64,000 nucleotides of DNA from Klebsiella phage KpLz-2_45. How positions within the stretch are numbered: the first letter of the stretch is position 1; every line of letters starts with the position of its first letter. The notes beneath the pieces are model-generated. The model was not told where the DNA came from and searched no databases. It saw nothing but the letters and a program-made list of their open reading frames with translations. Positions 11,668 to 45,946 of the stretch are shown here, piece after piece. A program made the position numbers and the translations under genes. The DNA lies in sequence record MN871446.1; one strand, given 5' to 3'.

Positions 11668-11668
11668 T

Positions 11669-13430: not shown

Positions 13431-13437
13431 TAAACTA

Positions 13438-17584: not shown

Positions 17585-17607
17585 TATACGGGGCGGTTAA
17601 AGTACGA

Positions 17608-17617
17608 GTCATAGAAA
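17608..17617 (-). promoter_or_regulatory. TTTCTATGAC motif 23 nt upstream of the tailspike B ATG (candidate late promoter)
   Basis: Member of the conserved motif family found at fixed distance upstream of tailspike genes. Confidence 0.45.
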
Positions 17618-17688
17618 GGTTTTGGGACAAAAAAGAAAAGCGCGAGAAGGAGACAACAGGAGAAGAGAGCAGACGCTCTCTTCTCCTG
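17617..17688 (-). terminator. terminator CAGGAGAAGAGAGC-AGAC-GCTCTCTTCTCCTG plus T-run
   Basis: 14-bp stem. Downstream on the minus strand is CGCTTTTCTTTTTTGTCCC. It follows the acidic-protein gene. Confidence 0.65.
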
Positions 17689-17692
17689 GGAA

Positions 17693-18100
17693 TTATTCAT
17701 CGTCTTCGAAGTCTTCCGGTACAGATTGGTAATCGTCATCGTCGTAGTCGTCCCAATCCTCTTCCTCGCTGTCGTCAAGTTCATCGATGATCTTGTTGTC
17801 AGCTTCTTCCATGAACCAGCCTTTCTCAGCCAGTGTAGCAGCAAAGACGTTGTTCCCTTCTTCGATCAGCGTTTCGGTCACCGCCCCTGAGTCATTCTCA
17901 GTAACGGCAACCACCGTGAGTTCTTCGCCGTCAGCGGTCTTATCGTTGACATCCGTTTTATAGAGTTCAAACCCTAACTGTTCGTTGACACTTTCTAATG
18001 TTTCAGAAAGGTCGAGTGGGTCAACCGGACGGCCGTCGTTGTCGATGACTTCGAAAGTCTCTTCGTCGGTACTGAATTTCAGGATAGTGCGATTTGTCAT
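17693..18100 (-). CDS. highly acidic protein (Asp/Glu about one third of residues; C-terminus DELDDSEEEDWDDYDDDDYQSVPEDFEDDE), candidate DNA mimic
   Basis: 135-aa ORF with extreme D/E content and very few K/R residues. Confidence 0.6.
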   Translation of the reverse strand: MTNRTILKFSTDEETFEVIDNDGRPVDPLDLSETLESVNEQLGFELYKTDVNDKTADGEELTVVAVTENDSGAVTETLIEEGNNVFAATLAEKGWFMEEADNKIIDELDDSEEEDWDDYDDDDYQSVPEDFEDDE

Positions 18101-18426
18101 TTCCAGTCCTCCTGGGTGCGTTTAATAAAGAGTGCGTCAACGACAGTCAGATCGACAGGGATCAGCTCAGTCGCCGCATGGGGTTGTATAAAGTAAAGCG
18201 TCAGAGTTGTGTCGTTGGTGAGTTTTCCAACCACGTTGTAAAGAACACCGTTGTACATTCCGGATGTGCCGGTTTTCAGATTGAGTGCAACAATGAGTTG
18301 TCGTCCCAGTAAATCGCAGTTGTTACCAGGGTAAGTGTCGCGGAGTTTAAAGAGTACTCGACCCACCTTTTCTTGCCATTCTTTCATTAACACATTGAGA
18401 ATCGTTTCTCTTGTAATAACCTGCAT
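18097..18426 (-). CDS. hypothetical protein (start moved to MQVITRETIL...)
   Basis: The ORF track starts at 18534. The internal ATG at 18426 has a Shine-Dalgarno AAGGAAG at -6. A TTTCTATGAT motif sits 22-24 nt upstream. Confidence 0.5.
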   Translation of the reverse strand: MQVITRETILNVLMKEWQEKVGRVLFKLRDTYPGNNCDLLGRQLIVALNLKTGTSGMYNGVLYNVVGKLTNDTTLTLYFIQPHAATELIPVDLTVVDALFIKRTQEDWK

Positions 18427-18448
18427 CTTGTCTTCCTTATTGGTCGTT

Positions 18449-18458
18449 ATCATAGAAA
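18449..18458 (-). promoter_or_regulatory. TTTCTATGAT motif 22-24 nt upstream of the 18426 ATG
   Basis: Same motif and spacing as upstream of the tailspike genes. Confidence 0.4.
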
Positions 18459-18547
18459 GTTTACTTAAAAATAGATTTGGGGTAGTCAAGAAAAACAGGC
18501 GGTATATTGCTATGTTAACACCTAAAATGAACAAGGCATAAGTAGCG

Positions 18548-18760
18548 ATGAACTATTCAATCATTCCCACCACAGCGCAAAAGATTGTTGAGATTACCCG
18601 CAGTAAAATTGACCCGAATGCGGTCACGCTCATTTTCGAAGACGGGGCAAACGAAACATTTCTGGATTGGTTTGTCCAGAAACATAAACCAGCAATCGGT
18701 CGTTTTCTGGCCAAAGACACCGACGGTTTCCTGCACGTAGTAGACACGATCGACGCTTAA
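18548..18760 (+). CDS. small hypothetical protein (70 aa), an isolated plus-strand gene
   Basis: Good ORF followed by a strong bidirectional terminator. It is divergent from the 18426 gene. Confidence 0.5.
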   Translation: MNYSIIPTTAQKIVEITRSKIDPNAVTLIFEDGANETFLDWFVQKHKPAIGRFLAKDTDGFLHVVDTIDA

Positions 18761-18769
18761 AAGAACACA

Positions 18770-18820
18770 GAAAGGAAAGGGGTTAGTCCCCTTTCCTTTC
18801 TAGTCTATATTGTTTTTCAG
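18770..18820. terminator. bidirectional terminator GAAAGGAAAGGGG-TTAGT-CCCCTTTCCTTTC
   Basis: 13-bp stem with T-rich tracts on both sides. It separates convergent genes. Confidence 0.7.
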
Positions 18821-19045
18821 GATGTCTTCGGCAGGGTAGAAATGATCTTCTACGATTTTACCGAATTGATGGGCGCCAGTGAGTGCGTTTTCTACGGGGG
18901 TGATGTAAGCGGCTTTATTGTCCCACGGCGGGAGAAGCTCTGAGAGCAACAGTGCGGCTTCGTTTAATAAAGCTAGGTTCTCGTCAGGGACGAATGATAT
19001 TGTCTCTTGTAGGCTCTCTAAGAGCGCTATACGGGGAGTAAACAT
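18800..19045 (-). CDS. hypothetical protein
   Basis: 81-aa ORF with Shine-Dalgarno AAGGG. Confidence 0.5.
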   Translation of the reverse strand: MFTPRIALLESLQETISFVPDENLALLNEAALLLSELLPPWDNKAAYITPVENALTGAHQFGKIVEDHFYPAEDILKNNID

Positions 19046-19071
19046 AGTTGACCCTTAAAGGTGAAATAAGA

Positions 19072-19089
19072 CAGGGACCGAAGTCCCTG
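19072..19089 (-). promoter_or_regulatory. 5'-leader stem-loop CAGGGAC-UUCG-GUCCCUG (UUCG tetraloop), about 25 nt upstream of the 19045 ATG
   Basis: Perfect 7-bp stem with a canonical UUCG loop on the minus-strand transcript. Confidence 0.4.
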
Positions 19090-19187
19090 AACTTATAAAT
19101 TAAAATGAATGTCTCGTTATTAACCGGCACTGTGAGAAACGGTTAAATAGGAGTAATCGGAGGGTGTCTTATTTCCTCTTCACACTT

Positions 19188-19200
19188 GTAATATAGATGT
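19188..19200 (-). promoter_or_regulatory. ACATCTATATTAC motif (minus strand), 14 nt after the tailspike C stop
   Basis: One of four instances of A(C/A)ATCTATAT(C/T)AC located in intergenic regions upstream of minus-strand genes. Confidence 0.35.
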
Positions 19201-19215
19201 GAAAAAGAATCGAGA

Positions 19216-20943: not shown

Positions 20944-20952
20944 CTAAACCTC

Positions 20953-22776: not shown

Positions 22777-22784
22777 GATTATTC

Positions 22785-22817
22785 CTTGTAGAAAGCCAGA
22801 GAGGGATTCCTCTCTGG
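22785..22817 (-). terminator. hairpin CCAGAGAGG-GATT-CCTCTCTGG between E and D
   Basis: 9-bp stem in the 46-nt E-D spacer. The T tail is weak, so it may act as an attenuator. Confidence 0.45.
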
Positions 22818-22822
22818 TGTTA

Positions 22823-25501
22823 TTATACCGTATAACGCCACGTCGAGTTCGTTAGCGTGACTGCGCCGGTGATCGTAATGTTGACCCTTTCTTGGTAATA
22901 CAGCACCAAGTTCAACGGGTAAGTACCCGCGGCTGTATAATTGTACAATATTTGGTCGTTCACTTTGATAACGCATGTACCACCAGAAGGGACAGTCAAA
23001 TCACCGTGGTACTTACCCGCGCGACGATAATTATAGACGTAGTCAACGCCTGTTAATGGTAGTGCGGTTGTCGTCAAATCAACATGGGTAGCGTCCCGCA
23101 TTCCAAAAGATGATTGTGTCCCGTCCCCATATCGAATACGTGAGTAGCTTGTTTGTGCGCTCTGGAAATACGCCAGTTGACTTTGTAGCTTAAGGTAAAT
23201 GACGTAATTAAAATTATTATCGTCCCATTTACAGTTCCGAGTACTAAAGAAGAAATTGGGATTAGGACTGTCTACACGGACGATGTACATCTGATCTTCG
23301 GTGAGGTTAGTCCACCCAGAATGGGTATTATAGAATTCGATATTATCGAGCGTCATTTTCCCGTAAAGAACAGTTGCGTCTACGTAGAACACAGGTTGCG
23401 CTGCGTAACCTCCAGCGTAGTAATCGAGATTGTAGAAGATCCCTTTCGAAATTGTGACAATACCAGTATCATTAGGTTGACCAATGCGTTGTCCGGTATA
23501 TTGTAACTTGGTCGTATCGTTAGTGACGTAGACCACTCTTGACATATACCAGCCCGTAATATCGGCAATGCCAACGTAAGCATTGTAGCCCATGCGAATA
23601 AACTCGCCAGGATAATACGCATTAACAAGGCCGATTGAAACACGGGAGTTACAGATTTCAATACAGTACGCGCCGGGGAGGGTTTGGGCAAGAGTCGGGC
23701 CGCCTTGGACACCAAAGATCTTGTTGATAGTGATCGCTGGAGTATCCCAAATTCTGACGTGAGGACCGCCGCCTGAACCTACTAACAGACTTCCTATCGT
23801 TACTGTTCCGCAAGTATCAATAATCAATCCACCTGTCGCCAGCAGCGGTGGGACAAAGTCTTCGTAATGTTCTAGTCCTACATCGTACATTTCTTTCAGA
23901 ACGGAAGCTTGGGAATTATTCTGCTCCCAAAGGTATTCAACTTTACCTAAGCCTGAACCAGTGTTTCGAAGATAGAACCCGCGACCCACTGTTTTGTTAT
24001 TCATCCTTAATGTACCAAGATTCTGAATGGACGGTAGGACGACGGTAAGATCTGGCCACTTCGCTGTTACATCGGTATAATTAGACTTCCCTAAGGAGTA
24101 AAGTACGGTTCCTGCGTAAGCACCTGCCGATATCTTAATATCCGGGGCGTTAACCATACTTTCCAGTCGTAACGCGTAGTTAGTGTCCACCAAGCCAGCA
24201 ATCTGTGCAGTGGTGTAATTATTGACTTGGAATGTCAGCGAGGTGTTGTCAATCTCAATATCGAACAGCGGACGGTTCGCTTGCACCACAAACCAACCCG
24301 CCCCTTGATCTAACGCATAACGCCCCGTAATACCGAAACGATCGCCGGAATTAGTTGGAAGAATCCACGACAGAGATTCAGGGAATGTTCCACAGCGAAT
24401 ATAATGGCGCTGAGCAAGGTAGACCACGCCTTTATCTAACCCGGTAATAATCGATTGCGGGTAACCGTTAGAGGAGAGTTGTCCGGCTGCTTTCAATGCA
24501 TTTTTAAATGCGGTATCTTGGGGTGCGGTGGTTTGGTCGTAACTCTTAACGCCTGCCCAGGCGAGCTTCACTACGTTCCCATTGATTCGACGTTTCCAAA
24601 GTCTGCCTAATTTATCAACAAGATGAACGCAGTCATCATCTGTTTTACTACCAGCTACGCTTTGTCGATCGAAAATCCCTTCCCCACCATCACCGGCGGT
24701 GCTGTAACCGTAAAGAGACAACGTGCTTGCATAACCCGTATAGTTGCGAAGATCAGCGTAATTCCCTGTACCGACCAGCCCTGCTCCATAGACGCTACTT
24801 AAATCAGCAGTAGCTACCCGCGCGCCTATGGCGGCCTCTACGGTGCCGCCTGCTGCCATTCCGATATTTGCAGCACCTGTCGGCCCGCTAAATAGACTGA
24901 GCAACGCTTCGTTGACTTTCTCAATGTCATCGCTACCAAAACAGATCGCTACTACGGTTTGATTTTCTTTTACTGGTGTAGCGAGTTTAAAGCTCAACAT
25001 ATCGCCAGCAACTAATTCAAAACCTACGTCTTTAAACTGACGCAAACCATCGACGTACACTTCCTGTACTGCGACATTCCCCGCTAAAGGAACCGTGAAG
25101 GTTTGCTCCCCGCCGTTACTTAACCCGCCATTATAAACCCACTGTACAATCGCCCCTTTATTCTTCAGAGCTTTATTCAACAGCGCGTAAGTACCGTAAG
25201 TGATTTGTTCACTATTAGCATTCAATAACGGGGTGGCGCCACCGGCACTGTTAACCCAGCCTTGAACATGCTCTTTAGTATCGTCAGTGTAAACAAAGAA
25301 CACATCGCCAGGAACCGTTGCCGAAACACCCGCCGCAGTACTCGAGTAGGCGTTCTCAAACATGATACTTTCACGTAACGCACGGAGTGTTGTTTTATAC
25401 GTGTCGTTTTCTTCTTTAACTTGAGCAATGGGGATAAACCCATTCTCTGAGGCTACCGACAAAGCCGGTAATTCGGTAATCTTTAAGCTAGACTTATCCA
25501 T
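22823..25501 (-). CDS. tailspike protein E (FENAY-type N-terminal anchor)
   Basis: 892 aa. The N-terminus KITELP...LRALRESIMFENAYSS...DVFFVYTDD is shared with H, I, J, K and L. Confidence 0.8.
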   Translation of the reverse strand: MDKSSLKITELPALSVASENGFIPIAQVKEENDTYKTTLRALRESIMFENAYSSTAAGVSATVPGDVFFVYTDDTKEHVQGWVNSAGGATPLLNANSEQITYGTYALLNKALKNKGAIVQWVYNGGLSNGGEQTFTVPLAGNVAVQEVYVDGLRQFKDVGFELVAGDMLSFKLATPVKENQTVVAICFGSDDIEKVNEALLSLFSGPTGAANIGMAAGGTVEAAIGARVATADLSSVYGAGLVGTGNYADLRNYTGYASTLSLYGYSTAGDGGEGIFDRQSVAGSKTDDDCVHLVDKLGRLWKRRINGNVVKLAWAGVKSYDQTTAPQDTAFKNALKAAGQLSSNGYPQSIITGLDKGVVYLAQRHYIRCGTFPESLSWILPTNSGDRFGITGRYALDQGAGWFVVQANRPLFDIEIDNTSLTFQVNNYTTAQIAGLVDTNYALRLESMVNAPDIKISAGAYAGTVLYSLGKSNYTDVTAKWPDLTVVLPSIQNLGTLRMNNKTVGRGFYLRNTGSGLGKVEYLWEQNNSQASVLKEMYDVGLEHYEDFVPPLLATGGLIIDTCGTVTIGSLLVGSGGGPHVRIWDTPAITINKIFGVQGGPTLAQTLPGAYCIEICNSRVSIGLVNAYYPGEFIRMGYNAYVGIADITGWYMSRVVYVTNDTTKLQYTGQRIGQPNDTGIVTISKGIFYNLDYYAGGYAAQPVFYVDATVLYGKMTLDNIEFYNTHSGWTNLTEDQMYIVRVDSPNPNFFFSTRNCKWDDNNFNYVIYLKLQSQLAYFQSAQTSYSRIRYGDGTQSSFGMRDATHVDLTTTALPLTGVDYVYNYRRAGKYHGDLTVPSGGTCVIKVNDQILYNYTAAGTYPLNLVLYYQERVNITITGAVTLTNSTWRYTV

Positions 25502-25544
25502 TTCGGTACCTGTATAGTCTGGGTAAATAAGAGGGTATCTAGAT

Positions 25545-25587
25545 CGTCATAAAAACACAAGAGTAGGGCCGATCGGCCCTACTCTCT
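25545..25587 (-). terminator. terminator AGAGTAGGGCC-GATC-GGCCCTACTCT followed by TGTGTTTTTATGAC
   Basis: 11-bp stem. The T-run contains the TTTTTATGAC motif, 44 nt upstream of the tailspike E ATG. Confidence 0.7.
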
Positions 25588-25600
25588 ATATTTTCAGCGC

Positions 25601-25810
25601 TTAACTTCCTTCTTCTTCAAAACGATTATAGGTTACCGATCTGGTGTCATCAATCAGTCCAGAGCTCTGAAGTGTCTGGTCAGCCAACATTAGGATAACG
25701 CTATCGTTGGTTTCCTCCGTCTCGAAGGTTGCTACCGCACCTTCTGAATGAGTAGAAGAAACCAAATAATTATTCTCTAATGCGGTTGTCGTAATATAAA
25801 AAGTTTTCAT
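25601..25810 (-). CDS. small hypothetical protein (69 aa) downstream of tailspike F
   Basis: ORF starting 4 nt after the tailspike F stop. Confidence 0.4.
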   Translation of the reverse strand: MKTFYITTTALENNYLVSSTHSEGAVATFETEETNDSVILMLADQTLQSSGLIDDTRSVTYNRFEEEGS

Positions 25811-25813
25811 GTC

Positions 25814-27796
25814 TTAACCTATCAAAAGTCGGTCACAAGTAACCGTCGGATTTTTTAATGTTATCGTCCCCACGAAACCGGTAATACGCAACCCGACTCT
25901 AGCAAATTGCATAGGGTTTGTTGTGTTAGTGTACGAGTTGGCCACTACTGCTTGAGTACAAAAACCTTGATAAGCCCCTAATAAATTATTAGCAGTCGCT
26001 AAAGCGCCGACATCAACGGCTGCGCTGTATACGGTTGATGTTGTTTTATCGGCAATCGCGGTGCTGTTCAGTGTTAAAGTGCTATGGACCTCAACACCGC
26101 ACGATACGTTCACGTTACCTGTCAAAGCACTGTCAACGATAATAGAACCTAACGCACGGAATTTATCATAAGGTAATAGATCGAATGGCATAGAGCACAT
26201 GATATAAAAGACACTACTTGTTGATGCAGATGTTACAGAGATACCCTGTAAATTGTCGGTAGGATCAACTGCCGAGTAGGTCCATGCGCCGTTTACATTA
26301 TACCAGCCGTATGAATCCGCAGTATTGATATTTGTCGAATATGCCGACCCAGCCGTCCCAGAAAATCTATTGGTGCTAATAACCCGTTCATCTGTTGCTG
26401 TAGGGTTAAATTTGGCAAGGAAAATACTAGCGGAAGTTAAGACGTCTTCTTTCGACTTTTGCCAGTCGACATCAATAGCATTATTAGCCGGCGCTCCGTT
26501 AATAATCAAAGATTGATATCCGGTTGTAGCCTGTAAAAAGGTCTCGTTACCCATGAATACTCGGGTTTCTTTGTCTATATTTACATAGCTGTTAATAGTA
26601 GAAGAGAAAAACCAAGTTCTATTCCATACCGTTTGTCCGGTACGTAAGTCAATTACGCACCCAGTGAAATTTATCTTTTTCCCTTGTTTTGGGTATAGTG
26701 TTGAGTTAACAACATTAACCAACATTCCTTGGACGCCTTCGATATGACATCTATCAAAAACAATATTAGCATTCCCACTTTTAGTGATTTTCACCATATC
26801 ACCGGTAGGGTAATCTAGCGAACAGTTAGAAAAGAACATTTCGAATGCGTTGTTTTCAATGTAGATTAAATCTGAATCTGAATCTGCGATAGTGGCATTA
26901 TCGAAAGTAAGTTTTTCCCCAGAGTTTGTCTTGCTATCGCCGAGTATAGCAATCGCATAATTATTACGACCTAAATGAAATGTCGAGAACGTATTGATGT
27001 AGTTATCGACGGGGTTAATCTTGATTCCATAAAAGAAACCCAGTGACTGAAAGTTGTTAATTGTGGCGCCACGAACATCGATAAAACCAGAAACTGAATT
27101 TCCGATTGTAATTCCTGCATTACTGGTTCTAGCGGCGCCAGTAGGGTGCGTCAATGTTAACCTGCCACCAACAAAAATAGAACGTTCGGATTCCCATAAT
27201 AAAACTTGTCTTGCCCTAACAGTACTGGTGAAAAGTGTATCTAATAAAGTAGGGAAATGACTGTTATCAATCACAATACCGTCGGTATTAGTGACCCCGT
27301 AGAAATCGAAATAAGTATCCGATTCCATTTTTAAGGTGACGAATGACGGAAGATAAATTGTACCCGACAGAGCGTACCTATTTGCGCCAAATTTTATTGC
27401 GGGGATTTTGATAGTGGTCGTAAAATTAATAATTCCTAATGCAGTGCTATACTTGATAGCGAGGTCGGTAGCAATTTTATTAATGCACGCCGAGAGATCT
27501 GTAAAACCTGGCTTCCCTAATAAGAAAAGTGGGTTGTAACCCTCTGAAAGATCAGCCCTCCAAAACTTTCCAGTGACTGACAAAAAGAGAGAATAGCCAT
27601 CATCTACAGCACTAGAAAGGGTGTCATCGTAATAGAGGACTTCGTTTAATACAGGACCGCCTGTGAATGCACGCTGAAGAATCACACTTTGTCCACTAAC
27701 CCAGGGTTTAAAACTACGTAAATCGTCAAGAGTACTGAGTACAACTCTTGAATATTCGCCGTTACTGCCTCGCGGTTTATTAAAATCAGTTAACAT
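25814..27796 (-). CDS. tailspike / depolymerase-like protein F (no FENAY anchor; starts with the shared LRSFKPW..GQ domain)
   Basis: 660 aa. LSTLDDLRSFKPWVSGQSVILQRAF is homologous to internal domains of G, H, K and L. Confidence 0.75.
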   Translation of the reverse strand: MLTDFNKPRGSNGEYSRVVLSTLDDLRSFKPWVSGQSVILQRAFTGGPVLNEVLYYDDTLSSAVDDGYSLFLSVTGKFWRADLSEGYNPLFLLGKPGFTDLSACINKIATDLAIKYSTALGIINFTTTIKIPAIKFGANRYALSGTIYLPSFVTLKMESDTYFDFYGVTNTDGIVIDNSHFPTLLDTLFTSTVRARQVLLWESERSIFVGGRLTLTHPTGAARTSNAGITIGNSVSGFIDVRGATINNFQSLGFFYGIKINPVDNYINTFSTFHLGRNNYAIAILGDSKTNSGEKLTFDNATIADSDSDLIYIENNAFEMFFSNCSLDYPTGDMVKITKSGNANIVFDRCHIEGVQGMLVNVVNSTLYPKQGKKINFTGCVIDLRTGQTVWNRTWFFSSTINSYVNIDKETRVFMGNETFLQATTGYQSLIINGAPANNAIDVDWQKSKEDVLTSASIFLAKFNPTATDERVISTNRFSGTAGSAYSTNINTADSYGWYNVNGAWTYSAVDPTDNLQGISVTSASTSSVFYIMCSMPFDLLPYDKFRALGSIIVDSALTGNVNVSCGVEVHSTLTLNSTAIADKTTSTVYSAAVDVGALATANNLLGAYQGFCTQAVVANSYTNTTNPMQFARVGLRITGFVGTITLKNPTVTCDRLLIG

Positions 27797-27823
27797 TGCC
27801 TATACCTCAGAATTGAAAGACTA

Positions 27824-27863
27824 AGTCATAGAAAAATCAGAGGAGGTCATGTACCTCCTCTGA
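27824..27863 (-). terminator. terminator TCAGAGGAGGT-CATGT-ACCTCCTCTGA followed by TTTTTCTATGAC
   Basis: 11-bp stem. The motif lies 28 nt upstream of the tailspike F ATG, which has Shine-Dalgarno GAGG. Confidence 0.7.
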
Positions 27864-27874
27864 TTAATTTGTTA

Positions 27875-30145: not shown

Positions 30146-30167
30146 TTAATTGAATTCCTTTAGGCAT

Positions 30168-30209
30168 CAAGAAAGAATAAAAGAGGGAAAGGTTTTCCTT
30201 TCCCTCTTT
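30168..30209 (-). terminator. terminator AAAGAGGGAAAGG-TTTT-CCTTTCCCTCTTT plus T-run
   Basis: 13-bp stem. Downstream on the minus strand is TTATTCTTTCTTGATGCC, a degenerate version of the TATG motif. It sits between the 30213 gene and tailspike G. Confidence 0.65.
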
Positions 30210-30212
30210 ACG

Positions 30213-30515: not shown

Positions 30516-30518
30516 TCC

Positions 30519-33191: not shown

Positions 33192-33203
33192 TGGGGAGGA
33201 AAA

Positions 33204-33250
33204 TAGTCATAGGAAAACAAATAGAGAGGAGCCAAAAGGCTCCTCTCTAT
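33204..33250 (-). terminator. terminator ATAGAGAGGAGCC-AAAA-GGCTCCTCTCTAT followed by TTGTTTTCCTATGAC
   Basis: 13-bp stem, with the motif immediately 3' of it on the minus strand. Confidence 0.7.
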
Positions 33251-33274
33251 AGTTTAAGATCTAGGATGTTATCA

Positions 33275-34999
33275 TTAATTTTGTTCGTACCACTTACCAT
33301 TAAAATAGTTAAACGTAACAATTTCATTTAAAGTAAGAGTGCGAGATGCGGATCCTTTCAAAACAATGGTGCTGTTATTGGCTAACGTAACGTTAGTATT
33401 CGCTGCATGGACCTTGATCTCTTGGGTATTGACGCCCCCAGTAAAGTTAGTTATTGTAGTAGCGGAACTCATGTTAAGGTACAAATAAGAAATACCATCA
33501 ACGGCTAAAGTGGTGCCCGATGTAAAAACCATGGATTTTTTAGACATGTTAAAAGGGCTGCCTAAATAATCATTGTTCTTATATTTTTGAGTACCTACTG
33601 CGGCTTGTACGTTTGGGGCGACCCAGTTATTCCATTGACTGTTAGATGAAGTTGTATCGTTAATCCCGTATCTTGGTGTAGTGCCATCTTGAGAATAAAC
33701 GCCAGCACCGACAAAAGTATTCAAAACACCGGAGACCGAGAAGCCATCATGGGTGTTAGCTGCGGCGGAACCGATACCAATTGCAGTAGGGTTACTGAAA
33801 GTGTTCGTTGAGCCAGTAACAACGAAACCATCACCCATACATCTATCTGCACGCGCCCCTGAAAAACGAGACCGCGTGCCATCGACGTAAATCCCGATTT
33901 CACCAAACTCACCGATAGTATCAGTGATGAAATGATTACTACCGCCGATCCTGAGAGCAACTGCCAATTTATTACCAGCTATAGTACTAAAACCACTTTG
34001 TCCATTAGCTTCGATTCTGAATAAGAAATGATCTGTCCCTAATATATCAACTGCCCCTTTCAATGTAGTGAAATTAGCTCTGTCATACATTGTGTTTAAA
34101 ACAATGATGTCCTGGATTACACAAGCTATAGAGCTAGAGAGGAGGCGTATACCTTGATTCTTTGTACTGTTAACGCCTACATGACTAATTACACAATTGC
34201 CTGAGGCTACTTCTATTCCACAGTCCAAATTAGCCGAACCAATAATAGTTATATTTCTGATGGCTGAGCTATAACCATTAACTACAATACCGCGACCAGA
34301 ATGTGTACACTTAATCGCAGAAGGATCATTCTGTGAATAATTACGCATTCCGTTGATACCAGAAAGATGGTGTCCAGAAGGAATTATAATTTCTTTGCCA
34401 GAGATCCATAACCCTTCGGAAATTTCACAATGGGTCGCGTCAGAAAGAACTTCATTGATCAAGTCACCAAAATCATCGGTGCTAACTCTTAACTTAATAT
34501 CATTGTACTTATTTTTTGTAACTGCGCGAGCTAGTTCAAATTTAGAACCATTACGCATGTCCGATAAAGTAGGTAAATAAAGTCCACCTACGTAATCCGC
34601 AAAACGTAAACTATCAACATCGGATGATAAGGTGGTCGGTAATGTTGCAATTGAACGCACTTGTCTACTTGTTGGTAATCTGACTTGTTCATTGTCATAA
34701 CCCAGAATAGGATTAGCCACACCACTATTATTTTGGTATTGCAACACCCACAATTTCGCCGCGCTTTCATAGACGAAAAATACGTCCCCTGACGCGGTTC
34801 CGTTCAGGCCCGCATCCACAGACAGGAAAGCGTTCTCGAAACCCAGCGTTTGACGAAGGTCGTTAATTTTGGTGGATTTAGTGAAAGGAACCCCTGCACT
34901 GGTTTTGGCGTTAATCGGGACGACGTCATTCTCTTTGATGACGCCTGCGTCACCGAGTTCAGAAATTTTGATTCCGATAGAATCTGAAGTCTTAGGCAT
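33275..34999 (-). CDS. tailspike protein I (FENAY-type anchor)
   Basis: 574 aa. KISELGDAG...LRQTLGFENAFLS...DVFFVYESAA. Confidence 0.8.
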   Translation of the reverse strand: MPKTSDSIGIKISELGDAGVIKENDVVPINAKTSAGVPFTKSTKINDLRQTLGFENAFLSVDAGLNGTASGDVFFVYESAAKLWVLQYQNNSGVANPILGYDNEQVRLPTSRQVRSIATLPTTLSSDVDSLRFADYVGGLYLPTLSDMRNGSKFELARAVTKNKYNDIKLRVSTDDFGDLINEVLSDATHCEISEGLWISGKEIIIPSGHHLSGINGMRNYSQNDPSAIKCTHSGRGIVVNGYSSAIRNITIIGSANLDCGIEVASGNCVISHVGVNSTKNQGIRLLSSSIACVIQDIIVLNTMYDRANFTTLKGAVDILGTDHFLFRIEANGQSGFSTIAGNKLAVALRIGGSNHFITDTIGEFGEIGIYVDGTRSRFSGARADRCMGDGFVVTGSTNTFSNPTAIGIGSAAANTHDGFSVSGVLNTFVGAGVYSQDGTTPRYGINDTTSSNSQWNNWVAPNVQAAVGTQKYKNNDYLGSPFNMSKKSMVFTSGTTLAVDGISYLYLNMSSATTITNFTGGVNTQEIKVHAANTNVTLANNSTIVLKGSASRTLTLNEIVTFNYFNGKWYEQN

Positions 35000-35021
35000 T
35001 ATACTACCCTCAAGTGAAAGA

Positions 35022-35075
35022 ATCTCATACGAAACAAAAGAGAAGAGGGTCGTAGCCCTCTTCTCTTTTTTAGAT
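35022..35075. terminator. terminator AGAGAAGAGGG-TCGTA-CCCTCTTCTCT, T-runs on both sides; minus strand continues TTTTGTTTCGTATGAG
   Basis: 11-bp stem. The motif lies 24 nt upstream of the tailspike I ATG. Confidence 0.7.
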
Positions 35076-37288
35076 TACCAACTAGAAAGAGCAGCTCTTA
35101 CCCAAGTATTAGTTGCAATACAAACGTAGTAATAACTACTATCAGCCGCCCATTGTCCTACAGTACCGGGAGCTGTTGCATTAGCAGGTACTGCGACTTT
35201 AACGCCAACTGGATTCCCTGCCACGGTAACGGCTCTTGAAAAATAACCATCCCGCCACTGAAGAGCACTTGTCCCAAAATCATAAAGGTTCGTCGCATTA
35301 GGGACTACTGTCCCCATGAAGTTGAACTGACTGGCGCCTCCGTTAGCAACAAAATTCATACCGGATAAATAACTGGTTAATGTCATCGGTCCGGTGTTAC
35401 CAAGTAAGATTCTACCCCCTAAAGTCGTGTTACCGTAAGGATAAAAATCCAGTCTCCTGTCTCCACTTGTAGTGTTATTATTTCCTATTTGGAGAATATT
35501 ACCACTGGAGATAGAGGCTGTTGTTTTAATAAGGTAACCGCTTATCGTCCCATCCTGAGCCACCGAAAGAATAGGTGTTGTCGGGTTGAAAGCACCATCT
35601 GTATTGGTGTAATAAATAGAAAGGGCGCTGTTATTATCGCTATCCACATCGATAATAAATTTTCTCGTCGCTACTTTGACGTCGTTAATGATCAGGCCGC
35701 TAGTAATTCTTCTCGTAAAGTTATTGATGGCGCAGTTTATCAGCTGATAAGCTCTTTTACCTTGTGTACTAGCGCTGACGTCAAAGATAGGGGCTACTGT
35801 AGAGTTACCGGAAACTTCAGAGAATGCGCTGGAGAAATAACAGCTATCGAAAACACGCCCGGTATTAGTACTTGTACCAAATCTAATCATTGGTACGTGG
35901 ACAGCGCTGTCATAACCAACTGCGGACTTCCTTAAAGTTTGGAAAGTACATCCAGTGAATTTAATAATCCCTTGGTTGATGAATCCTAATTCGTAAGTGC
36001 CCGCTGAATCTGTTCCGCCAGAACCATTATCGGTAAAAATTACTGTATCGAAATTAAACTGCGTACCGCCGCCCAAATTAAACCATTTTGCACCGTAGAA
36101 GTGAGTCTCAATATGACCGCCTTCAAATTTAATGTTGTGGTGCGTACTGGAGGTAGGAGTTGGGTCTACTTTAATAGCTACGTAGTTTTTAGTGTACGTC
36201 GTTTCAATGTGTGGCCTGATGAACACAATGTTGTTGGAGTTGTCCGTGGCCTGAGGTAAGAAATGAATCCCTGTCGCAGGATTGTTTGTATCATTATCAT
36301 CAACGGCAACAAACCCAGTCATGTAGATACAGTCGAAAACCGCATCGTAACACTGACCGAATGTTAAAGCTTTAGTGGGCGACATGAAGTTAAGGTTTGA
36401 AAATCTTCCACCAACAGCCATTGAGTTAGCGGTTACTTCACTTCCGAGTTTAATGTAATAAGCAAAAATGCCCGGTTCTTTAATAAACGTTAACCCGTCC
36501 ATTTCAAGGCGCCCGCCCGTGAAAGTAAAGAGAAAATCTTTATTCACGTTAGAAGAAATATAAGCACCTTTTCCTAGAATCCTAAACCTTGGTTTTCCAG
36601 TCTCATAGCTGATAGCGCTTAAGTCTTTAACTATTTTACTGTCGAGTCGATATTTACCTGGCGGGAAAAATAACCACCCCGAGGCATATCGTTGAGCGTT
36701 AGAGATATTGATTTCTTTTTGATAAATACATTTATCTATTGCTGCGCTAACTGCCGGAGACCAATCCCAAGTAGAGGGGTCATTAGGATTATCTTTTTTG
36801 GTGACTAGACTTGAAAACTCCCAAATATTGATAGGTAGGCTATTTAATGCTTTAGCCGCGCTCTCCGCGCTTAACTCGATCTCTTTACGTTGATAGCCAA
36901 CTTCATCAGCTCCATTATTAGACATAATTCCATCAACGTCACCACGTATTACTTTTATACCGTAACCGGTATAATTAATTTTAGCAGTACCGTCCGAGTT
37001 AAAAATCTGTTCTGCAACTCCGTTGCGGTTGACATATGCTTTAACTGTCGTTTTTTCTGCATCGACATAAACGTAGAAAATTTGATTAGGGACAGTACCC
37101 GCAAGACCCGCTACTGTCGTAGTGAATGCGTTTTCGAAATTTAGCAGGGAGCGTAAATCAGAAATCTCCATCGCTTTAGATTCGGTTATTCCCGCTTCAT
37201 TCTGAGCGATAAATACGACATCAGAATCATTTACCGGTTTCGATGGTCGATCCATTTCACTGAGTTTTACAAAGATCTCACTGGCCAT
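35075..37288 (-). CDS. tailspike protein J (FENAY-type anchor)
   Basis: 737 aa. MASEIFVKLSEM...LRSLLNFENAFTT...QIFYVYVDAE. Confidence 0.8.
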   Translation of the reverse strand: MASEIFVKLSEMDRPSKPVNDSDVVFIAQNEAGITESKAMEISDLRSLLNFENAFTTTVAGLAGTVPNQIFYVYVDAEKTTVKAYVNRNGVAEQIFNSDGTAKINYTGYGIKVIRGDVDGIMSNNGADEVGYQRKEIELSAESAAKALNSLPINIWEFSSLVTKKDNPNDPSTWDWSPAVSAAIDKCIYQKEINISNAQRYASGWLFFPPGKYRLDSKIVKDLSAISYETGKPRFRILGKGAYISSNVNKDFLFTFTGGRLEMDGLTFIKEPGIFAYYIKLGSEVTANSMAVGGRFSNLNFMSPTKALTFGQCYDAVFDCIYMTGFVAVDDNDTNNPATGIHFLPQATDNSNNIVFIRPHIETTYTKNYVAIKVDPTPTSSTHHNIKFEGGHIETHFYGAKWFNLGGGTQFNFDTVIFTDNGSGGTDSAGTYELGFINQGIIKFTGCTFQTLRKSAVGYDSAVHVPMIRFGTSTNTGRVFDSCYFSSAFSEVSGNSTVAPIFDVSASTQGKRAYQLINCAINNFTRRITSGLIINDVKVATRKFIIDVDSDNNSALSIYYTNTDGAFNPTTPILSVAQDGTISGYLIKTTASISSGNILQIGNNNTTSGDRRLDFYPYGNTTLGGRILLGNTGPMTLTSYLSGMNFVANGGASQFNFMGTVVPNATNLYDFGTSALQWRDGYFSRAVTVAGNPVGVKVAVPANATAPGTVGQWAADSSYYYVCIATNTWVRAALSSW

Positions 37289-37320
37289 AATTGTACCTTA
37301 CTTTGTCTCTAATAGTCAAT

Positions 37321-37336
37321 TGTACATACGATTGAC
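37321..37336 (-). promoter_or_regulatory. TCAATCGTATGTAC motif variant, 33 nt upstream of the tailspike J ATG
   Basis: Shares the CGTATG core with the motifs at I, K and L. It sits in the divergent J/K intergenic region. Confidence 0.35.
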
Positions 37337-37373
37337 AGCTTGAAAGAATACGTTTCGGTTTATTATACATTAA

Positions 37374-37420
37374 CTAGAGAAGGATGCGGAAAAGCTCCTC
37401 TCTTTTTTGTTTCGTATGAC
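37374..37420 (+). promoter_or_regulatory. imperfect hairpin AGAGAAGGATGCGG-AAAA-GCTCCTCTCT followed by TTTTTTGTTTCGTATGAC
   Basis: Plus-strand copy of the hairpin-plus-motif cassette. The motif lies 27 nt upstream of the tailspike K ATG at 37448. Confidence 0.55.
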
Positions 37421-37447
37421 CATTTTTATTTACGTTGGAGTTGTGAA

Positions 37448-39493
37448 ATGACCGATATCACTGCATTGAAAATCTCTGAACTATCGCCCAGTTCTAATCC
37501 GTCAGAGAATGCGTTTCTTCCGCTCTCAGAAGCGAACGGAATCGCTTCTGAAAAAGTCAGTATTGGTACCCTCAGAGAAACGTTAGGTTTTGAGAACGCG
37601 TACAGCACGATTGCTGGCGCGCTCAATGTAACTACGGAAGGGAATGTTTTCTTTGTTTACGAAGACAGTACGCGAGACTATGTTTTGGGGTATGTAAACC
37701 AAGGGAACGGAACCTATTCTGCATTAATGTCAGACAGTACGACACAAGTTCGCTACGCGACGAATGCGCATATTGTCAACTCTTTATTCATGTTACAAGG
37801 AGTAGAAAGTTTCGATGCGTTACGTACCCTCAAACCGTGGTACGAAGGACAACGTGTCACGTTGAAGAGTTACTACAAAGACGGGGTTACGGGTGCTGGT
37901 ATCTTCATTGCGCGTTTAGGAGTAAATGCAGATGACAACGGCACGATTGCCGCGGGGAACGGATTCTACTGGCAACGGATTATTTCTGATAAGTTGTCTT
38001 TTGAGGACTTTGGTGCAGTCGGGGGCGGCGTACTGGACGATACTAGTAATATTCAAAAAGCGGTCAACTACTGTGCCAAAAATGGCATTGCACTAACGTG
38101 TTTAGGGAAAGTATACGCGGTCAGTACCGTAAATTTCCCAACCGATTTAGTGATCGATATGCGTAATGCAGTACTTTTGTCGCTGCCCTCTGTTACGACG
38201 GGTTATACCTTAACAATCAGCGGCTATTTGTCACCTGCGGCTAATCCAGGGAAATTTGATAATATTCGCGTTCAGCGTACCTTAATTAATACTCATCAAC
38301 CCGACACTAACAGTGTCGTAGACGGCGTGTCATTTGGTGTCGATGCGCACAATATTTCCTTCTACAATCTTAAGGTCTCTGGGTTTAGGGACGGGGTTTG
38401 TTTTAACGGGAAGAGTGCTTACCTCATTCGTTTATACAGCCCAATCATCGGACAATGTTGGCGCCGAGGGATGGCCTTTTATGCGAATACTGATTCTAAT
38501 GAGAACGTGACTATTTACGGTGGCGTGATTGCAGATTGTTGTAATTTTACTTTCGACGGTACCGGGCTCTACTTATCAGGGAGTGCCTCGAGTATCGATG
38601 TCAGGTTCTTTGGAACCAGTTTTGATTATTGCGACATCTCAGTTGATATTTATCAGTCTAACGTCGAGCTCCACGGTTGTCACTTGGAAAACAATAACAA
38701 CAACCCTCATATTCGACTTTCGTACACCTCAACCAAAAACCAACCCTATCTGATCATGAAAGGGGGAACAATGGGCGGCGGACCGAACGCGAACTCGTGG
38801 AGCGGTATTCCGATAGAAAATAGTACGGGTCGCCCTTACCTCGTCTTCATTACTAACACTGGCGGTGCCCACGTAGATATTGATGGAACTGACACCAGTA
38901 AATACATGACAGGAGTCAGGAGAACTACCGAGATCGTAGGTGTAGAAGGGGATAACTACCAGTTGATCGGGACCTTAAGGGTGAGGAACAAAATGACCTC
39001 TGGAAACATGGATAACGCCAGCCGCCCCATGCGACCTTGTAGTGCTCTTAACGTGATTCTGATCAACCAGTATCAAACTGCCGCATGGACACCGAGTTAC
39101 ACTAACGCAGACCTAACTTATACGATTGATACTACGAATTACTCTAACCCTAATTCACCGCACTCACGAAAAATTACACAAGGAAGCGTACGTAACGTCT
39201 CTTACTGGCAGGACGTGACACTGCGCGGCGGAGATATCTTCCACGCGGAGGCCGAAATCAAAATTACTTCGTTGACGGCTGGTTACGTCGCACTTCGAGT
39301 GGATTTTTACGACTCTGCCGGGAACGTAATACAATCGTCAATCAAATCTGTATCTGCGGTGACGACCGATTGGAATAACGTGTGGGTCTGGTTACGTGCG
39401 CCAAACGGTACAGTCAAGGCAAAAGTTCAAGAGTACTTAAACGGCTTTGTTGGAACAGCATATTTCACCAATGAACACGTTTGGATTTCTTAA
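37448..39493 (+). CDS. tailspike protein K (FENAY-type anchor); start moved from 37340
   Basis: The track start at 37340 extends across the upstream hairpin and motif. The ATG at 37448 (MTDITALKISEL...) has a Shine-Dalgarno GGAG and matches the other anchors. Contains FDALRTLKPWYEGQRVTLKSYY. Confidence 0.8.
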   Translation: MTDITALKISELSPSSNPSENAFLPLSEANGIASEKVSIGTLRETLGFENAYSTIAGALNVTTEGNVFFVYEDSTRDYVLGYVNQGNGTYSALMSDSTTQVRYATNAHIVNSLFMLQGVESFDALRTLKPWYEGQRVTLKSYYKDGVTGAGIFIARLGVNADDNGTIAAGNGFYWQRIISDKLSFEDFGAVGGGVLDDTSNIQKAVNYCAKNGIALTCLGKVYAVSTVNFPTDLVIDMRNAVLLSLPSVTTGYTLTISGYLSPAANPGKFDNIRVQRTLINTHQPDTNSVVDGVSFGVDAHNISFYNLKVSGFRDGVCFNGKSAYLIRLYSPIIGQCWRRGMAFYANTDSNENVTIYGGVIADCCNFTFDGTGLYLSGSASSIDVRFFGTSFDYCDISVDIYQSNVELHGCHLENNNNNPHIRLSYTSTKNQPYLIMKGGTMGGGPNANSWSGIPIENSTGRPYLVFITNTGGAHVDIDGTDTSKYMTGVRRTTEIVGVEGDNYQLIGTLRVRNKMTSGNMDNASRPMRPCSALNVILINQYQTAAWTPSYTNADLTYTIDTTNYSNPNSPHSRKITQGSVRNVSYWQDVTLRGGDIFHAEAEIKITSLTAGYVALRVDFYDSAGNVIQSSIKSVSAVTTDWNNVWVWLRAPNGTVKAKVQEYLNGFVGTAYFTNEHVWIS

Positions 39494-39506
39494 GAAGGAA
39501 CTCACT

Positions 39507-39728
39507 ATGTTTCAAGTAGGCGACACCGTTCGCATCCTTTCTTGTCAAACTCGAGAAGACTTAGTTGGGAAAGAAACGACCATCAGTGCACTGGACGCTA
39601 AACTGAAAGATTTGGCTTGGGCAGATATCTACGGAATGGATCAATATATTTCGGTGGTCATCGATACCGATGCACGGTTTATTGCGGCTCAATTGGAACT
39701 CGTAGCCAGTGACATTGAAGGCTCTTAA
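39507..39728 (+). CDS. small hypothetical protein (73 aa; MFQVGDTVRILS...)
   Basis: Shine-Dalgarno AAGGA. The start lies 13 nt after the tailspike K stop. The track start at 39447 overlaps tailspike K. Confidence 0.4.
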   Translation: MFQVGDTVRILSCQTREDLVGKETTISALDAKLKDLAWADIYGMDQYISVVIDTDARFIAAQLELVASDIEGS

Positions 39729-39734
39729 GTTATA

Positions 39735-39780
39735 GGCAATGAGGGGACCTAAGTCCCCTCATTGCCTTGTTTCGTATGAC
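39735..39780 (+). terminator. terminator GGCAATGAGGGGAC-CTAA-GTCCCCTCATTGCC followed by TTGTTTCGTATGAC
   Basis: Perfect 14-bp stem. The motif lies 24 nt upstream of the tailspike L ATG at 39805. Confidence 0.7.
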
Positions 39781-39804
39781 AATCCTCTTTCAGGAATAAA
39801 AAAC

Positions 39805-41763
39805 ATGTCTAATGAAACACAGAAAATTAGCGAGTTGCTCAATACGTCCATCATTTCAGAGAACACTATTCTTCCCGTAGTTGCTGCTGAAGGTGAGACC
39901 AATTCCATCGATATTATCACTTTACGCTCGGCGTTGTTATTTGATAAAGCGTTTGAGACTAACGCAGCGGGTAATGCAGCGACTAGTAAAAACGATTCTT
40001 ATTTTGTTTATACCGATGCCACCAAAACAGCCGTATTGGGCTGGATGAACCAAGGCGGGGATTCTTACTCGCCTCTCCTCGATATTAATGGTGCACAAAT
40101 CCGTTTTATTGCAGGTCAAACTATTCGAGGTCTGGATTATTTCACAAATGGAGTTAACTCGTTTGCGGATCTGAGAACACTGACTCCGTTGTATTCCGGG
40201 CAACGCATTAAATTAAAGGCTTGGACAGCGGGAGAAAAGACAGGCGGCGGTGAATTTATTGCTGTCTTCGGAACTGCGACTGACGATGCGGGCACTATCG
40301 CGGCCGGAAACGGCTTTTATTGGGAAAGAGTGATCAATGGTGGGCTAAATCCAGAGATGTTTGGTGCTATCGGAAACGGTGTAGTTGACGACAGTAATAG
40401 TTTATCTAAATTTCTACTGGCTTTAGCAAATAGAGCCAAATATTTAACCCCAATAACATTTGTTCCGGCCATAGGTTATCTCAACGGTATCTATAGAATA
40501 ACAAAGACTATTACTGTAGATGGCGGTAAAGTAAGATTAACTACCAACACTGTTGGTTGCATCTTTTGTGACCCTACAGGGACTTACGAAAGTACCGGAT
40601 GTATTAAAGTAACCAATAATTACCTTAACTCTGCTTTTGTTGGACAGTACGCAGCACTATTTGAAAATATTTCTTTCGTCAGTACAGGAAGAACACTCAC
40701 CGCAATTTACGCTGTGAGGGGAGATGCTGTGAGCGGTAATAACGGTGCGTGTCTTCATAATGTTTTTAAATGTTCGTTTAAAGGCTTCAGTAAAATTTTT
40801 ACACATGGACCTGGCGGTTGGGGTTGGAACTGGGCAGGTTGTCAATTTTCTGATAGTACCAATTTGATGGTAATTGAGGATCAAGACGACACTTATGAAA
40901 GGCATAGTTTTGATGGATGTATTTTCCAAAACGGAGGGGTTGCATTTACAATAAATAACCCCGATGGGAAAGTCTATTGGAAAAATGGTTCTATGGACTA
41001 CTGCACCGGCGCAGCTACAATTACCGCCGGTTTCATAGAACTTAATGGTCATTTCGAGTGGACAGCCAGAACCGTAGATTTCATTACACTTTTATCAAGT
41101 AATGCGGCTGCTTCTATCTCGGGTGCAATGTTTATTCGTAACAATACTTCTGGTTCTACCTATTACGTCATTAATCAATACCAAGATAAGCAAGTAAAAG
41201 TAGATAATTTGGTCGTTATATCTGACGGTAATTACATTGCCAATGGAGTACTCTCAAATAGAGAGTTGTTAAAGGGAACAATTTTTGCGCAGAACGACGC
41301 GTCTAAATCTGTGCTCTATCACTCCTCTGATGAAAATCTGATATCGGGAACTACGTCTTACCCTCAAGTAACTTTAACTAACACCACTCAGTTTTCTTAT
41401 TCGGTGGCTGATGGTTCTTTGACGATTAGTTGTTCTGCGGGCGGACAAAGTGGTTTTCTTTACTTAGATGTCCCGGTAAATAATAAAAAATTCTACGCTT
41501 ATAAAATGACGGCGAGTAATACGTCTAATGGTTCTGTGTTCCTAGAAAAAACCGTATTGAATGCAAATAAAGATACGATAAGAACCGATACCAGTTCAGG
41601 TACTACCAGCTGGGCAGCAGGCTCTAGTTCGGTGGCAGGAGGTACTGTGACTCTTTTATCTTTACCTGCGGCGGCGGCTTTTATACGAATTAGATTTAAT
41701 CTCTCAAGTATGACAACAGGAAGTACGTTTACTATCAGTTCATTGAAAACTTTCACTTTTTAA
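39805..41763 (+). CDS. tailspike protein L (FENAY-like anchor); start moved from 39739
   Basis: The track start lies inside the terminator stem. MSNETQKISELLNTS... matches the anchor family. Contains FADLRTLTPLYSGQRIKLKAW. Confidence 0.8.
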   Translation: MSNETQKISELLNTSIISENTILPVVAAEGETNSIDIITLRSALLFDKAFETNAAGNAATSKNDSYFVYTDATKTAVLGWMNQGGDSYSPLLDINGAQIRFIAGQTIRGLDYFTNGVNSFADLRTLTPLYSGQRIKLKAWTAGEKTGGGEFIAVFGTATDDAGTIAAGNGFYWERVINGGLNPEMFGAIGNGVVDDSNSLSKFLLALANRAKYLTPITFVPAIGYLNGIYRITKTITVDGGKVRLTTNTVGCIFCDPTGTYESTGCIKVTNNYLNSAFVGQYAALFENISFVSTGRTLTAIYAVRGDAVSGNNGACLHNVFKCSFKGFSKIFTHGPGGWGWNWAGCQFSDSTNLMVIEDQDDTYERHSFDGCIFQNGGVAFTINNPDGKVYWKNGSMDYCTGAATITAGFIELNGHFEWTARTVDFITLLSSNAAASISGAMFIRNNTSGSTYYVINQYQDKQVKVDNLVVISDGNYIANGVLSNRELLKGTIFAQNDASKSVLYHSSDENLISGTTSYPQVTLTNTTQFSYSVADGSLTISCSAGGQSGFLYLDVPVNNKKFYAYKMTASNTSNGSVFLEKTVLNANKDTIRTDTSSGTTSWAAGSSSVAGGTVTLLSLPAAAAFIRIRFNLSSMTTGSTFTISSLKTFTF

Positions 41764-45877: not shown

Positions 45878-45946
45878 GGCTACACCTCAATAAGTTTTAC
45901 GTTTACATAGTAGGAACGGTAACTGTAAGGTTTGAAATGTTACAGC

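Follow-up and report, generated by a model that had tools for sequence, protein, structure and literature searches.

What separates the tailspike genes of Klebsiella phage KpLz-2_45 from one another, and what starts them? We analysed a stretch of 64,000 nucleotides of this phage (sequence record MN871446.1), called the window below, in which a GC-rich hairpin, a T-run and a short box with the core TATG recur before tailspike genes. A first-pass annotation, made from the letters alone, had proposed terminator-promoter units. Our analysis leads to a related reading, to which we assign a probability of roughly three in four: the cassette consists of two separable signals set back to back, a terminator for the gene that ends upstream and a promoter, read by a phage polymerase, for the gene that begins downstream.

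Judged by its sequence, the phage is a nucleus-forming, phiKZ-like Klebsiella jumbo phage of the phiKp24 (Maaswegvirus) group. The assignment to the nucleus-forming type is based on close relatives, which carry a nuclear shell protein and PhuZ; the genes of vB_kp_MJ359 (MJ359) include the nuclear shell protein, the PhuZ tubulin and several split RNA polymerase beta-like genes. Between positions 42000 and 60000 the window is 99.1% identical to LPKP23 and 98.8% identical to MJ359 (over 18 kb), and about 77% identical to vB_KpM_FBKp24 (phiKp24, genus Maaswegvirus; FBKp24 below) and to vB_KpM_Centimanus (Centimanus). The tailspike region (17000-40000) is a mosaic, of which 9-64% is common with any single relative.

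Placement of the box before start codons

Both strands of the window were searched with the regular expression TTT[CT]N?TATGA. Nine distinct sites were found, namely the eight instances listed by the first-pass annotation, each at the place it had given, and one more at 47750-47760 (minus strand). All nine lie on the sense strand of the next gene, with 22-44 nt between the end of the motif and the start codon, a space that makes up only about 2% of the sequence. The annotation had named an equal frequency within genes on both strands as the mark of a compositional artefact; this refuting outcome was not obtained, as among the nine window sites there is no antisense or deep-intragenic copy. Judged by raw counts (6 found and 1.8 expected; 4 found and 2.2 expected), the motif is weakly enriched, and the pattern is thus significant because of its placement rather than its count.

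The distance to the start codon was said to be fixed, which the range of 22-44 nt does not bear out (Table 1). A spacing of 22-28 nt in six of eight cases is obtained if B is counted from its first ATG, and becomes five of eight with the start codons annotated in relatives. The latter were used for B and H; they are compatible with a ribosome-binding site, and the first in-frame ATG of B is missing in FBKp24. The cassette had also been tied to tailspike genes. This was too narrow, as the motif occurs before the head maturation protease gene (47750-47760) and before gene 46182-46859 as well.

The same expression gave 16 matches in the 300 kb of MJ359, none of them antisense. Throughout this genome, TATG peaks 20-44 nt before start codons (53 occurrences against about 22 expected), and the sites without a hairpin still form a smaller peak, about two-fold.

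Separability of hairpin and box

To compare the two parts we used 46 cassettes located before tailspike genes, with 31 distinct cores, from seven phages down to about 77% identity (the window, FBKp24, MJ359, KpZh_1, KpYy_2_45, LPKP23 and Centimanus). The stems differ widely at both paralogous and orthologous positions. Constant are the T-rich positions -8 to -4, TATGA and usually the following C; the TATG core is present at 9/9 window sites and in 46/46 cassettes, all selected by the regular expression. In cassette E, for example, the motif is unchanged in six relatives and the stems vary. The stem of cassette F shows compensatory double changes at 6 of 13 pairs among eight versions compared. 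In the B motif, FBKp24 and Centimanus retain the TTTCTATGA part, followed in both by A in place of C.

The hairpins follow the orientation of the preceding gene. Thirty-eight of the 46 cassettes stand behind a co-oriented gene, and 34 of these carry a strong hairpin (-17 kcal/mol or lower) within 55 nt before TATG; the remaining four tandem cassettes are of the B type, with the hairpin farther off. At divergent junctions, seven of eight cassettes have a weak hairpin or none (-1.4 to -14.3 kcal/mol), and the box is kept in all eight. Mean hairpin energies are -21.9 kcal/mol for tandem and -9.5 kcal/mol for divergent cassettes (Mann-Whitney p = 0.001). The K-type cassette shows both states. In FBKp24 and Centimanus, which have a co-oriented gene ahead of the K-type gene, the hairpin is perfect (-25 to -26 kcal/mol); in the window, KpYy_2_45, LPKP23 and KpZh_1 the gene is divergent from its neighbour, and the hairpin has decayed or disappeared. 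Because divergent junctions lose the hairpin and keep the motif, we conclude that the hairpin serves the upstream gene and the box the downstream gene. As far as sequence comparison can tell, this supports the terminator-promoter reading of the first-pass annotation: the hairpin goes with the upstream-gene context and the motif is kept irrespective of it. A hairpin-dependent promoter of the N4 virion polymerase type is not what we see, as the box persists without a hairpin at the divergent junctions and at 18449 and 47750, and is 39 nt away from the hairpin at B.

Within the window, a hairpin with its T-run leads straight into the motif at E, F, H, I, K and L. Strong folding was calculated for the hairpins of B, E, F, H, I and L, with energies of -21 to -30 kcal/mol and z values of -5.5 to -7.7 relative to shuffled sequences. 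The features of intrinsic terminators, a GC-rich stem-loop and a T-run after a co-oriented stop codon, are found with energies of -17 to -30 kcal/mol and z values of -3.7 to -7.7. Hairpin and motif had been described as abutting in seven cases; this is correct for E, F, H, I and L, at K the motif follows a hairpin that is decayed, imperfect and weak, and at B the two stand apart. The hairpin assigned to the 18426 gene does not exist at its motif.

Beyond the tailspike cluster, genes 45146-45877, 46182-46859 and 18097-18426 and the protease gene have TATG at an unchanged place in FBKp24 or Centimanus, with diverged flanks. At 18449 it is TATGA that is kept, in both FBKp24 and Centimanus, between diverged flanks. 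The TATG of the cassette at 46916-46963 is at the same place in FBKp24. The protease motif sits within the 3' end of the upstream gene and has no hairpin.

Table 1. Boxes, hairpins and cassettes of the window. Energies in kcal/mol; z against shuffled sequences; spacing in nt between motif end and start codon.
Feature	Position	Strand	Parts	Energy	z	Spacing	Context
B motif	17608-17617	-	TTTCTATGAC			41	before tailspike B (15524-17566)
B hairpin	17657-17688	-	14-bp stem	-26.7	-7.3		after gene 17693-18100; 39 nt upstream of B motif
18426-gene motif	18449-18458	-	TTTCTATGAT			22	before small gene 18097-18426; divergent context, no hairpin
D hairpin	22796-22817	-	hairpin, then CTTTCTACAAGG; no TATG	-16.8	-5.2		before tailspike D
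Cassette E	25546-25586	-	hairpin 25559-25586, T-run, TTTTTATGAC 25546-25555	-23.8	-6.4	44	before tailspike E (22823-25501)
Cassette F	27825-27865	-	hairpin 27835-27865 running into TTTCTATGAC 27825-27834	-21.2	-6.8	28	before tailspike F (25814-27796)
G hairpin	30180-30209	-	hairpin; no TATG after it	-20.1	-4.2		before tailspike G
Cassette H	33206-33250	-	hairpin 33221-33250, TTGTT, TTTCCTATGAC 33206-33216	-25.9	-7.3	38	before tailspike H (30519-33167)
Cassette I	35024-35071	-	hairpin 35036-35069, TTTCGTATGAG 35024-35034	-22.1	-5.5	24	before tailspike I (33275-34999)
J element	37315-37336	-	palindrome GTCAAT-N10-ATTGAC, CGTATGTAC in loop				36 nt before start codon of tailspike J (35075-37288)
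Cassette K	37374-37420	+	decayed hairpin 37374-37403, T-run, TTTCGTATGAC 37410-37420	-12		27	before tailspike K (37448-39493), divergent from J
Cassette L	39734-39780	+	hairpin 39734-39767, TG, TTTCGTATGAC 39770-39780	-30.2	-7.7	24	before tailspike L (39805-41763)
Convergent hairpin	41771-41798	both	bidirectional terminator; no TATG on either side				between L and 41807-42373
Cassette outside tailspike cluster	46916-46963	-	hairpin 46940-46963, TTTTATGAT 46916-46924				before gene 46182-46859
Protease motif	47750-47760	-	TTTCGTATGAG			34	before head maturation protease gene 46969-47715

TATG after hairpins and the terminators of phiKZ

The association of box and hairpin was further analysed without the regular expression. 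All terminator-like hairpin tails were listed, TATG or TATGA was sought in the next 24 nt, and each tail was shuffled separately as control. In the window, TATGA follows 6 of 29 hairpin tails as compared with 0.9 in shuffled tails (1 of 5000 shuffles reaches 6), and TATG follows 8 of 29 as compared with 4.0 (180 of 5000 shuffles reach 8). MJ359 allowed a division by the gene downstream. Where a co-oriented gene starts within 90 nt, TATG is found in 18 of 46 tails (7.8 in shuffled tails; none of 2000 shuffles reaches 18). Tails without a co-oriented start have TATG in 12 of 66, which is not significant (9.3 in shuffled tails; 414 of 2000 shuffles reach 12). In tails with a following start, TATG is continued by A in 11 of 17 scorable cases; in tails with none, by T or C in 11 of 12. 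An earlier uniform-frequency null for TATG after hairpins was withdrawn, as the tails are rich in T and A and enrichment was overstated; the enrichment without a following gene seen under that null vanished with per-tail shuffles.

These data bear on a rival explanation that we consider improbable, in which the TATG tail is part of a terminator specific for the phage polymerase, the enzyme pausing as its pocket meets the box after the hairpin. Such tails exist in phiKZ, where the mapping of terminators by ONT-cappable-seq yielded the common motif BCCYCCCCHWWDGGGRRGGBYTTATKYYGT (PMC10914365). Between 100 and 150 kb of phiKZ we found TATG in 13 of 38 hairpin tails as compared with 5.7 in shuffled tails (6 of 2000 shuffles reach 13), in 12 of the 13 cases 0-3 nt after the stem. 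The window itself holds one element of this form, at 45942-45975 (minus strand), where the hairpin GAGAGGAGGGCAGACGCCCTCCTCTC is directly followed by TATGCTGT, as in the phiKZ terminator tail TTATKYYGT. Several observations on the cassettes speak against this rival. The MJ359 tails without a co-oriented gene downstream are not enriched in TATG by per-tail shuffles, the box occurs without an adjoining hairpin at divergent junctions, B, 18449 and 47750, the distance from stem to TATG varies (4-10 nt), and the convergent terminators of the window (41771-41798 and 18769-18801) are not followed by TATG.

MJ359 carries the element at 45942-45975 as well, and in FBKp24 it takes the related form TATGCTCT. 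A second TATG precedes the start of gene 45146-45877 by 28 nt.

The tailspike hairpins themselves do not conform to the phiKZ terminator motif, and only 45942-45975 has the TATGCTGT tail. What they have in common with phiKZ terminators is a GC-rich hairpin with a T-rich tail containing TATG (Putzeys 2024, PMC10914365). They differ in the 5' arm, which is purine-rich here (AGAGAGG) and pyrimidine-rich in phiKZ (CCYCCCC), in the distance from stem to TATG (4-10 nt here, 0-3 nt in phiKZ) and in the tail (TATGAC here, TATG(T/C)(T/C)GT in phiKZ). At long odds, the TATG box might double as an aid to pausing and termination, the non-template-strand pocket that sets the start site also catching the box just behind a hairpin. 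Such a stop-and-restart module would pass the polymerase straight on to the next gene, and would explain the adjacency of hairpin and TATG in phiKZ and the presence of TATG in the phiKZ terminator motif.

Possible inheritance or exchange of the box with tailspike modules

A box of 11-16 nt could also be constant without any transcriptional role, either inherited by paralogues or used as homology arm for the swapping of tailspike modules. The similarity blocks between the window and six relatives (24900-25590, 32017-33250, 34658-35041, from 37409 on and from 39775 on) each cover box and leader and reach into the tailspike gene, of which they include the first 340-1200 nt. They stop near TATG at E, H, I, K and L, with ends at -9 to +48 nt from its G, and the N-terminal module phrog_27731 is common to tailspikes E, H, I, J, K and L. 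What is exchanged between relatives is the variable C-terminal part of the tailspike and sometimes the hairpin. As a full account of the box we regard this as quite improbable, since flanking leaders and hairpins have diverged beyond recognition between paralogous cassettes while the box is constant, and since the TATGA box stands before unrelated genes (the protease gene, 46182-46859, and in MJ359 the terminase and virion protein genes). A recombination site would also not need a strict sense strand and leader spacing. A role in recombination or inheritance can coexist with promoter function.

A scan of IMG/VR with TTGTTTCGTATGAC returned only single matches in unrelated contigs, the chance level for a 14-mer, and was uninformative on the spread of the cassette.

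A candidate promoter for the non-virion RNA polymerase

The late promoters of phiKZ, used by its five-subunit non-virion RNA polymerase, are reported on in Ceyssens 2014 and Yakunina 2015 (PMC4666361). These promoters are defined by 5'-TATG-3', with G as +1, and all four bases are required for in vitro transcription by the purified non-virion polymerase (PMC4666361). The host polymerase does not use them, and transcription in phiKZ-type phages is independent of that enzyme (PMC4666361). A structure shows the pocket of gp123 that recognizes TATG on the non-template strand (PMC12809450). According to a review, promoters of this type are not predictable from sequence (PMC7598289).

In MJ359, each of the five phiKZ non-virion polymerase subunits has a full-length homologue (compared with the chains of PDB 7OGP): gp55 (E 3.5e-65), gp68 (E 2.6e-31), gp71-73 (E 4.2e-77), gp74 (E 4.6e-67) and gp123 (E 1.5e-59). 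The gp123 homologue is located three genes after the major head gene, the same as in phiKZ. Given the published TATG consensus, the comparison with phiKZ late promoters that the first-pass annotation had drawn holds, and by the nuclear shell, PhuZ and polymerase genes of its relatives the phage is of the kind required. Of 14 residues of gp123 in contact with TATG, seven are identical (S144, F151, K158, H331, S334, S402, Q466) and four are replaced conservatively (H185Y, N186Q, N398T, Y406F), which is compatible with the same TATG recognition but no proof of it. The MJ359 gene 103262-104629 (annotated 'RNA polymerase beta subunit') was rejected as the gp123 homologue because it gave no PDB match.

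Use of the box by the host was considered as well, with ATGAC as a -35-like hexamer of a sigma-70 promoter. A sigma-70 scan did pair ATGACT at 17612 with a TATAAT 18 nt downstream. B is the only cassette that the scan pairs with a -10 hexamer; at I a TATAAT is visible by eye 19 nt downstream, H, K and L have none, and the TATAAT at B and I overlaps the first ATG. Sigma-70-like sites are not enriched over shuffled sequences (39 against 33.5, 36 against 30), and phiKZ-type phages transcribe without the host polymerase (PMC4666361), which makes a host element very improbable. Equally improbable is an action of the box in RNA, as processing site, mRNA-end signal or start codon of a tiny upstream frame: the ATG within the box does start frames of 2-12 codons, yet these vary in length, are not conserved and have a T-run in place of a ribosome-binding site, and Rfam gave no match in the window.

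Proposed function of the cassette

We propose that the GC-rich hairpin and T-run would act as an intrinsic-type terminator of the gene ending just upstream, and that the box TTT(C/T)(G/C)-TATG-A(C) would be the promoter of the next gene, read by the phage's own non-virion RNA polymerase of the phiKZ type. If the enzyme works as in phiKZ, its gp123 homologue would hold the non-template TATG in the beta-lobe pocket, and the G of TATG would be the first transcribed base. The mRNA leader would then be about 24-46 nt long and contain the ribosome-binding site; for B, the predicted start is G 17610 with a leader of about 43 nt. The tailspike region would be divided into short transcription units: J; I; H with a small gene; F with a small gene; E; K; L; and B-A. 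The box-less D-C and G would depend on read-through or another signal. Start site, acting polymerase and late timing are what we infer; the label 'late' is used because the downstream genes encode virion proteins.

Several observations weigh against this proposal. The sequence logo was built from sites picked by the regular expression, so that the invariance of the core is partly circular; the hairpin-anchored test and a survey of TATGA before long open reading frames are free of this circularity. The tailspike paralogues share their N-terminal module, and part of the extended similarity (TTTCG, AC) may for this reason reflect inheritance and not selection. A hairpin without a box precedes D and G, and A and C lack any own signal. 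A candidate TATGAT at 9373-9378 reads TATAAT in Centimanus and was dropped as not conserved. The polymerase genes lie outside the window, and their presence is deduced from relatives with 99% identity over 18 kb. The gp123 contacts Ser330, Lys190 and Tyr399 are not conserved, and conservation of the pocket is not significantly above the overall identity of 30% (p = 0.09). The association of a looser motif with structural genes is lost without the tailspike cluster (see below). No transcript start or 3'-end data for the phiKp24 group were found in the literature searched.

The exceptions D, G, A and C also limit the earlier claim that each tailspike gene is insulated. A lies directly downstream of B (gap of 16 nt) and C directly downstream of D (gap of 9 nt). 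The hairpins of D and G are candidates for a terminator or attenuator only, and the two genes may be expressed by read-through of a weak terminator or from another signal; the G counterpart in FBKp24 likewise has a hairpin and no TATG box. Degenerate motifs had been noted upstream of G, J and D. Only J turned out to have the TATG core, with T rather than A at +2. In FBKp24, stem and TATG of the J element are kept, and the element is annotated as 'promoter' in MW394391 (16822-16844 of the FBKp24 sequence examined).

Comparison with known systems

Terminator-promoter junctions are known between late genes of other lytic phages, where a compact stop is followed by a start and short units result. 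Here a different polymerase family would be involved, and the promoter logic is another, with a recognized element that would overlap the start site. As in phiKZ late promoters, an invariant TATG core lies at leader distance before genes such as those for the tailspikes, protease and terminase, five homologous polymerase subunits are encoded (in MJ359), and a separate AT-rich motif is found at other, presumably early, genes. Unlike in phiKZ, the conserved box is longer, with T-rich positions -8 to -4 (TTTCG), A at +2 and C at +3. Nothing beyond TATG is conserved in phiKZ promoters, and changes at -4 and +2 have little effect there.

The boxes closely resemble the phiKZ-type promoter signal, which was to be expected in kind and is newly seen in the phiKp24 group. 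The GenBank record of FBKp24 already annotates the hairpins as terminators and leaves the TATGAC boxes unannotated; its tailspike region has only two 'promoter' features, both in the divergent J-K spacer, one of them covering the TATG palindrome. The phiKp24 papers PMC8386662 and PMC9700779 contain no promoter analysis. Judged by titles or abstracts, none of the papers found on Maaswegvirus, Centimanus, LPKP23 and MJ359 is about transcription.

The cassettes provide a first testable transcription map of the receptor-binding gene cluster in phiKp24-type Klebsiella jumbo phages, which are under study for therapy and for their many capsule depolymerases. For phiKZ it has been a question what determines late promoters beyond the short TATG; the longer box TTTCG-TATG-AC, recognizable from sequence alone, offers candidate extra determinants. 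As the cassettes match the borders of exchangeable tailspike modules, they should be useful for depolymerase swaps that leave expression undisturbed.

Gene classes and other promoter-like motifs

Genes downstream of boxes in the window include virion genes (tail fibres or spikes and the head protease). In MJ359, TATGA-type boxes precede the terminase, several virion structural proteins and all tailspike units. Overall, annotated structural genes are associated with the looser pattern pyrimidine-pyrimidine-N-TATG (odds ratio 4.2, p = 7e-4); once the tailspike cluster is left out, the association is not significant (4/22 against 18/154). The box may mark promoters of the non-virion polymerase more broadly, with TTTCG-TATGAC as the tailspike flavour.

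A second and stronger upstream motif, TATAT(C/T)AC-N3-(A/G)TTGAA, occurs on the minus strand of the window at 45129-45136, 19188-19195 and 10925-10932. MJ359 has about 20 intergenic copies. The motif is sense-specific, and TATAT(C/T)AC represents the most enriched 6-mer family in upstream regions apart from ribosome-binding sites. No annotated structural gene stands behind it (0 of 52 against 19 of 314). We regard it as a candidate for an early promoter used by the virion polymerase, comparable to the AT-rich early element of phiKZ-type phages, and its avoidance of structural genes fits a phiKZ-like scheme of early and later promoters. In MJ359, a conserved AATATATACAT(C/G)AAAAAAA is found about 25 nt upstream of TTTTATG or CTTATG before 13272-13811, 33509-34762 and 292074-293531 (all minus strand). 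A middle-type promoter is one possibility for this element, which the 64-kb window does not contain.

Two seeming intergenic gaps of the window, 9352-9548 and 11668-11907, hold small reading frames with their own ribosome-binding sites, and relatives annotate a 126-nt gene in the first of them. The TATGAT copies at 9373 and 11823 are situated within or beside these frames, which makes them doubtful as promoters; the one at 11823-11828 was dropped as a candidate, as it lies within a small unannotated reading frame.

Two genes of the window, 50984-55471 and 55487-57118 (both minus strand), encode beta-like RNA polymerase proteins of 1495 and 543 residues. The larger protein has weak matches, to bacterial beta subunits only, and none to the chains of the phiKZ non-virion polymerase. 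Both are located among virion genes, and we take them to belong to the virion polymerase, of which the larger is presumably a subunit. Divergent from both is 57163-63756 (plus strand), which encodes a protein of 2197 residues, a tail fibre according to the MJ359 annotation.

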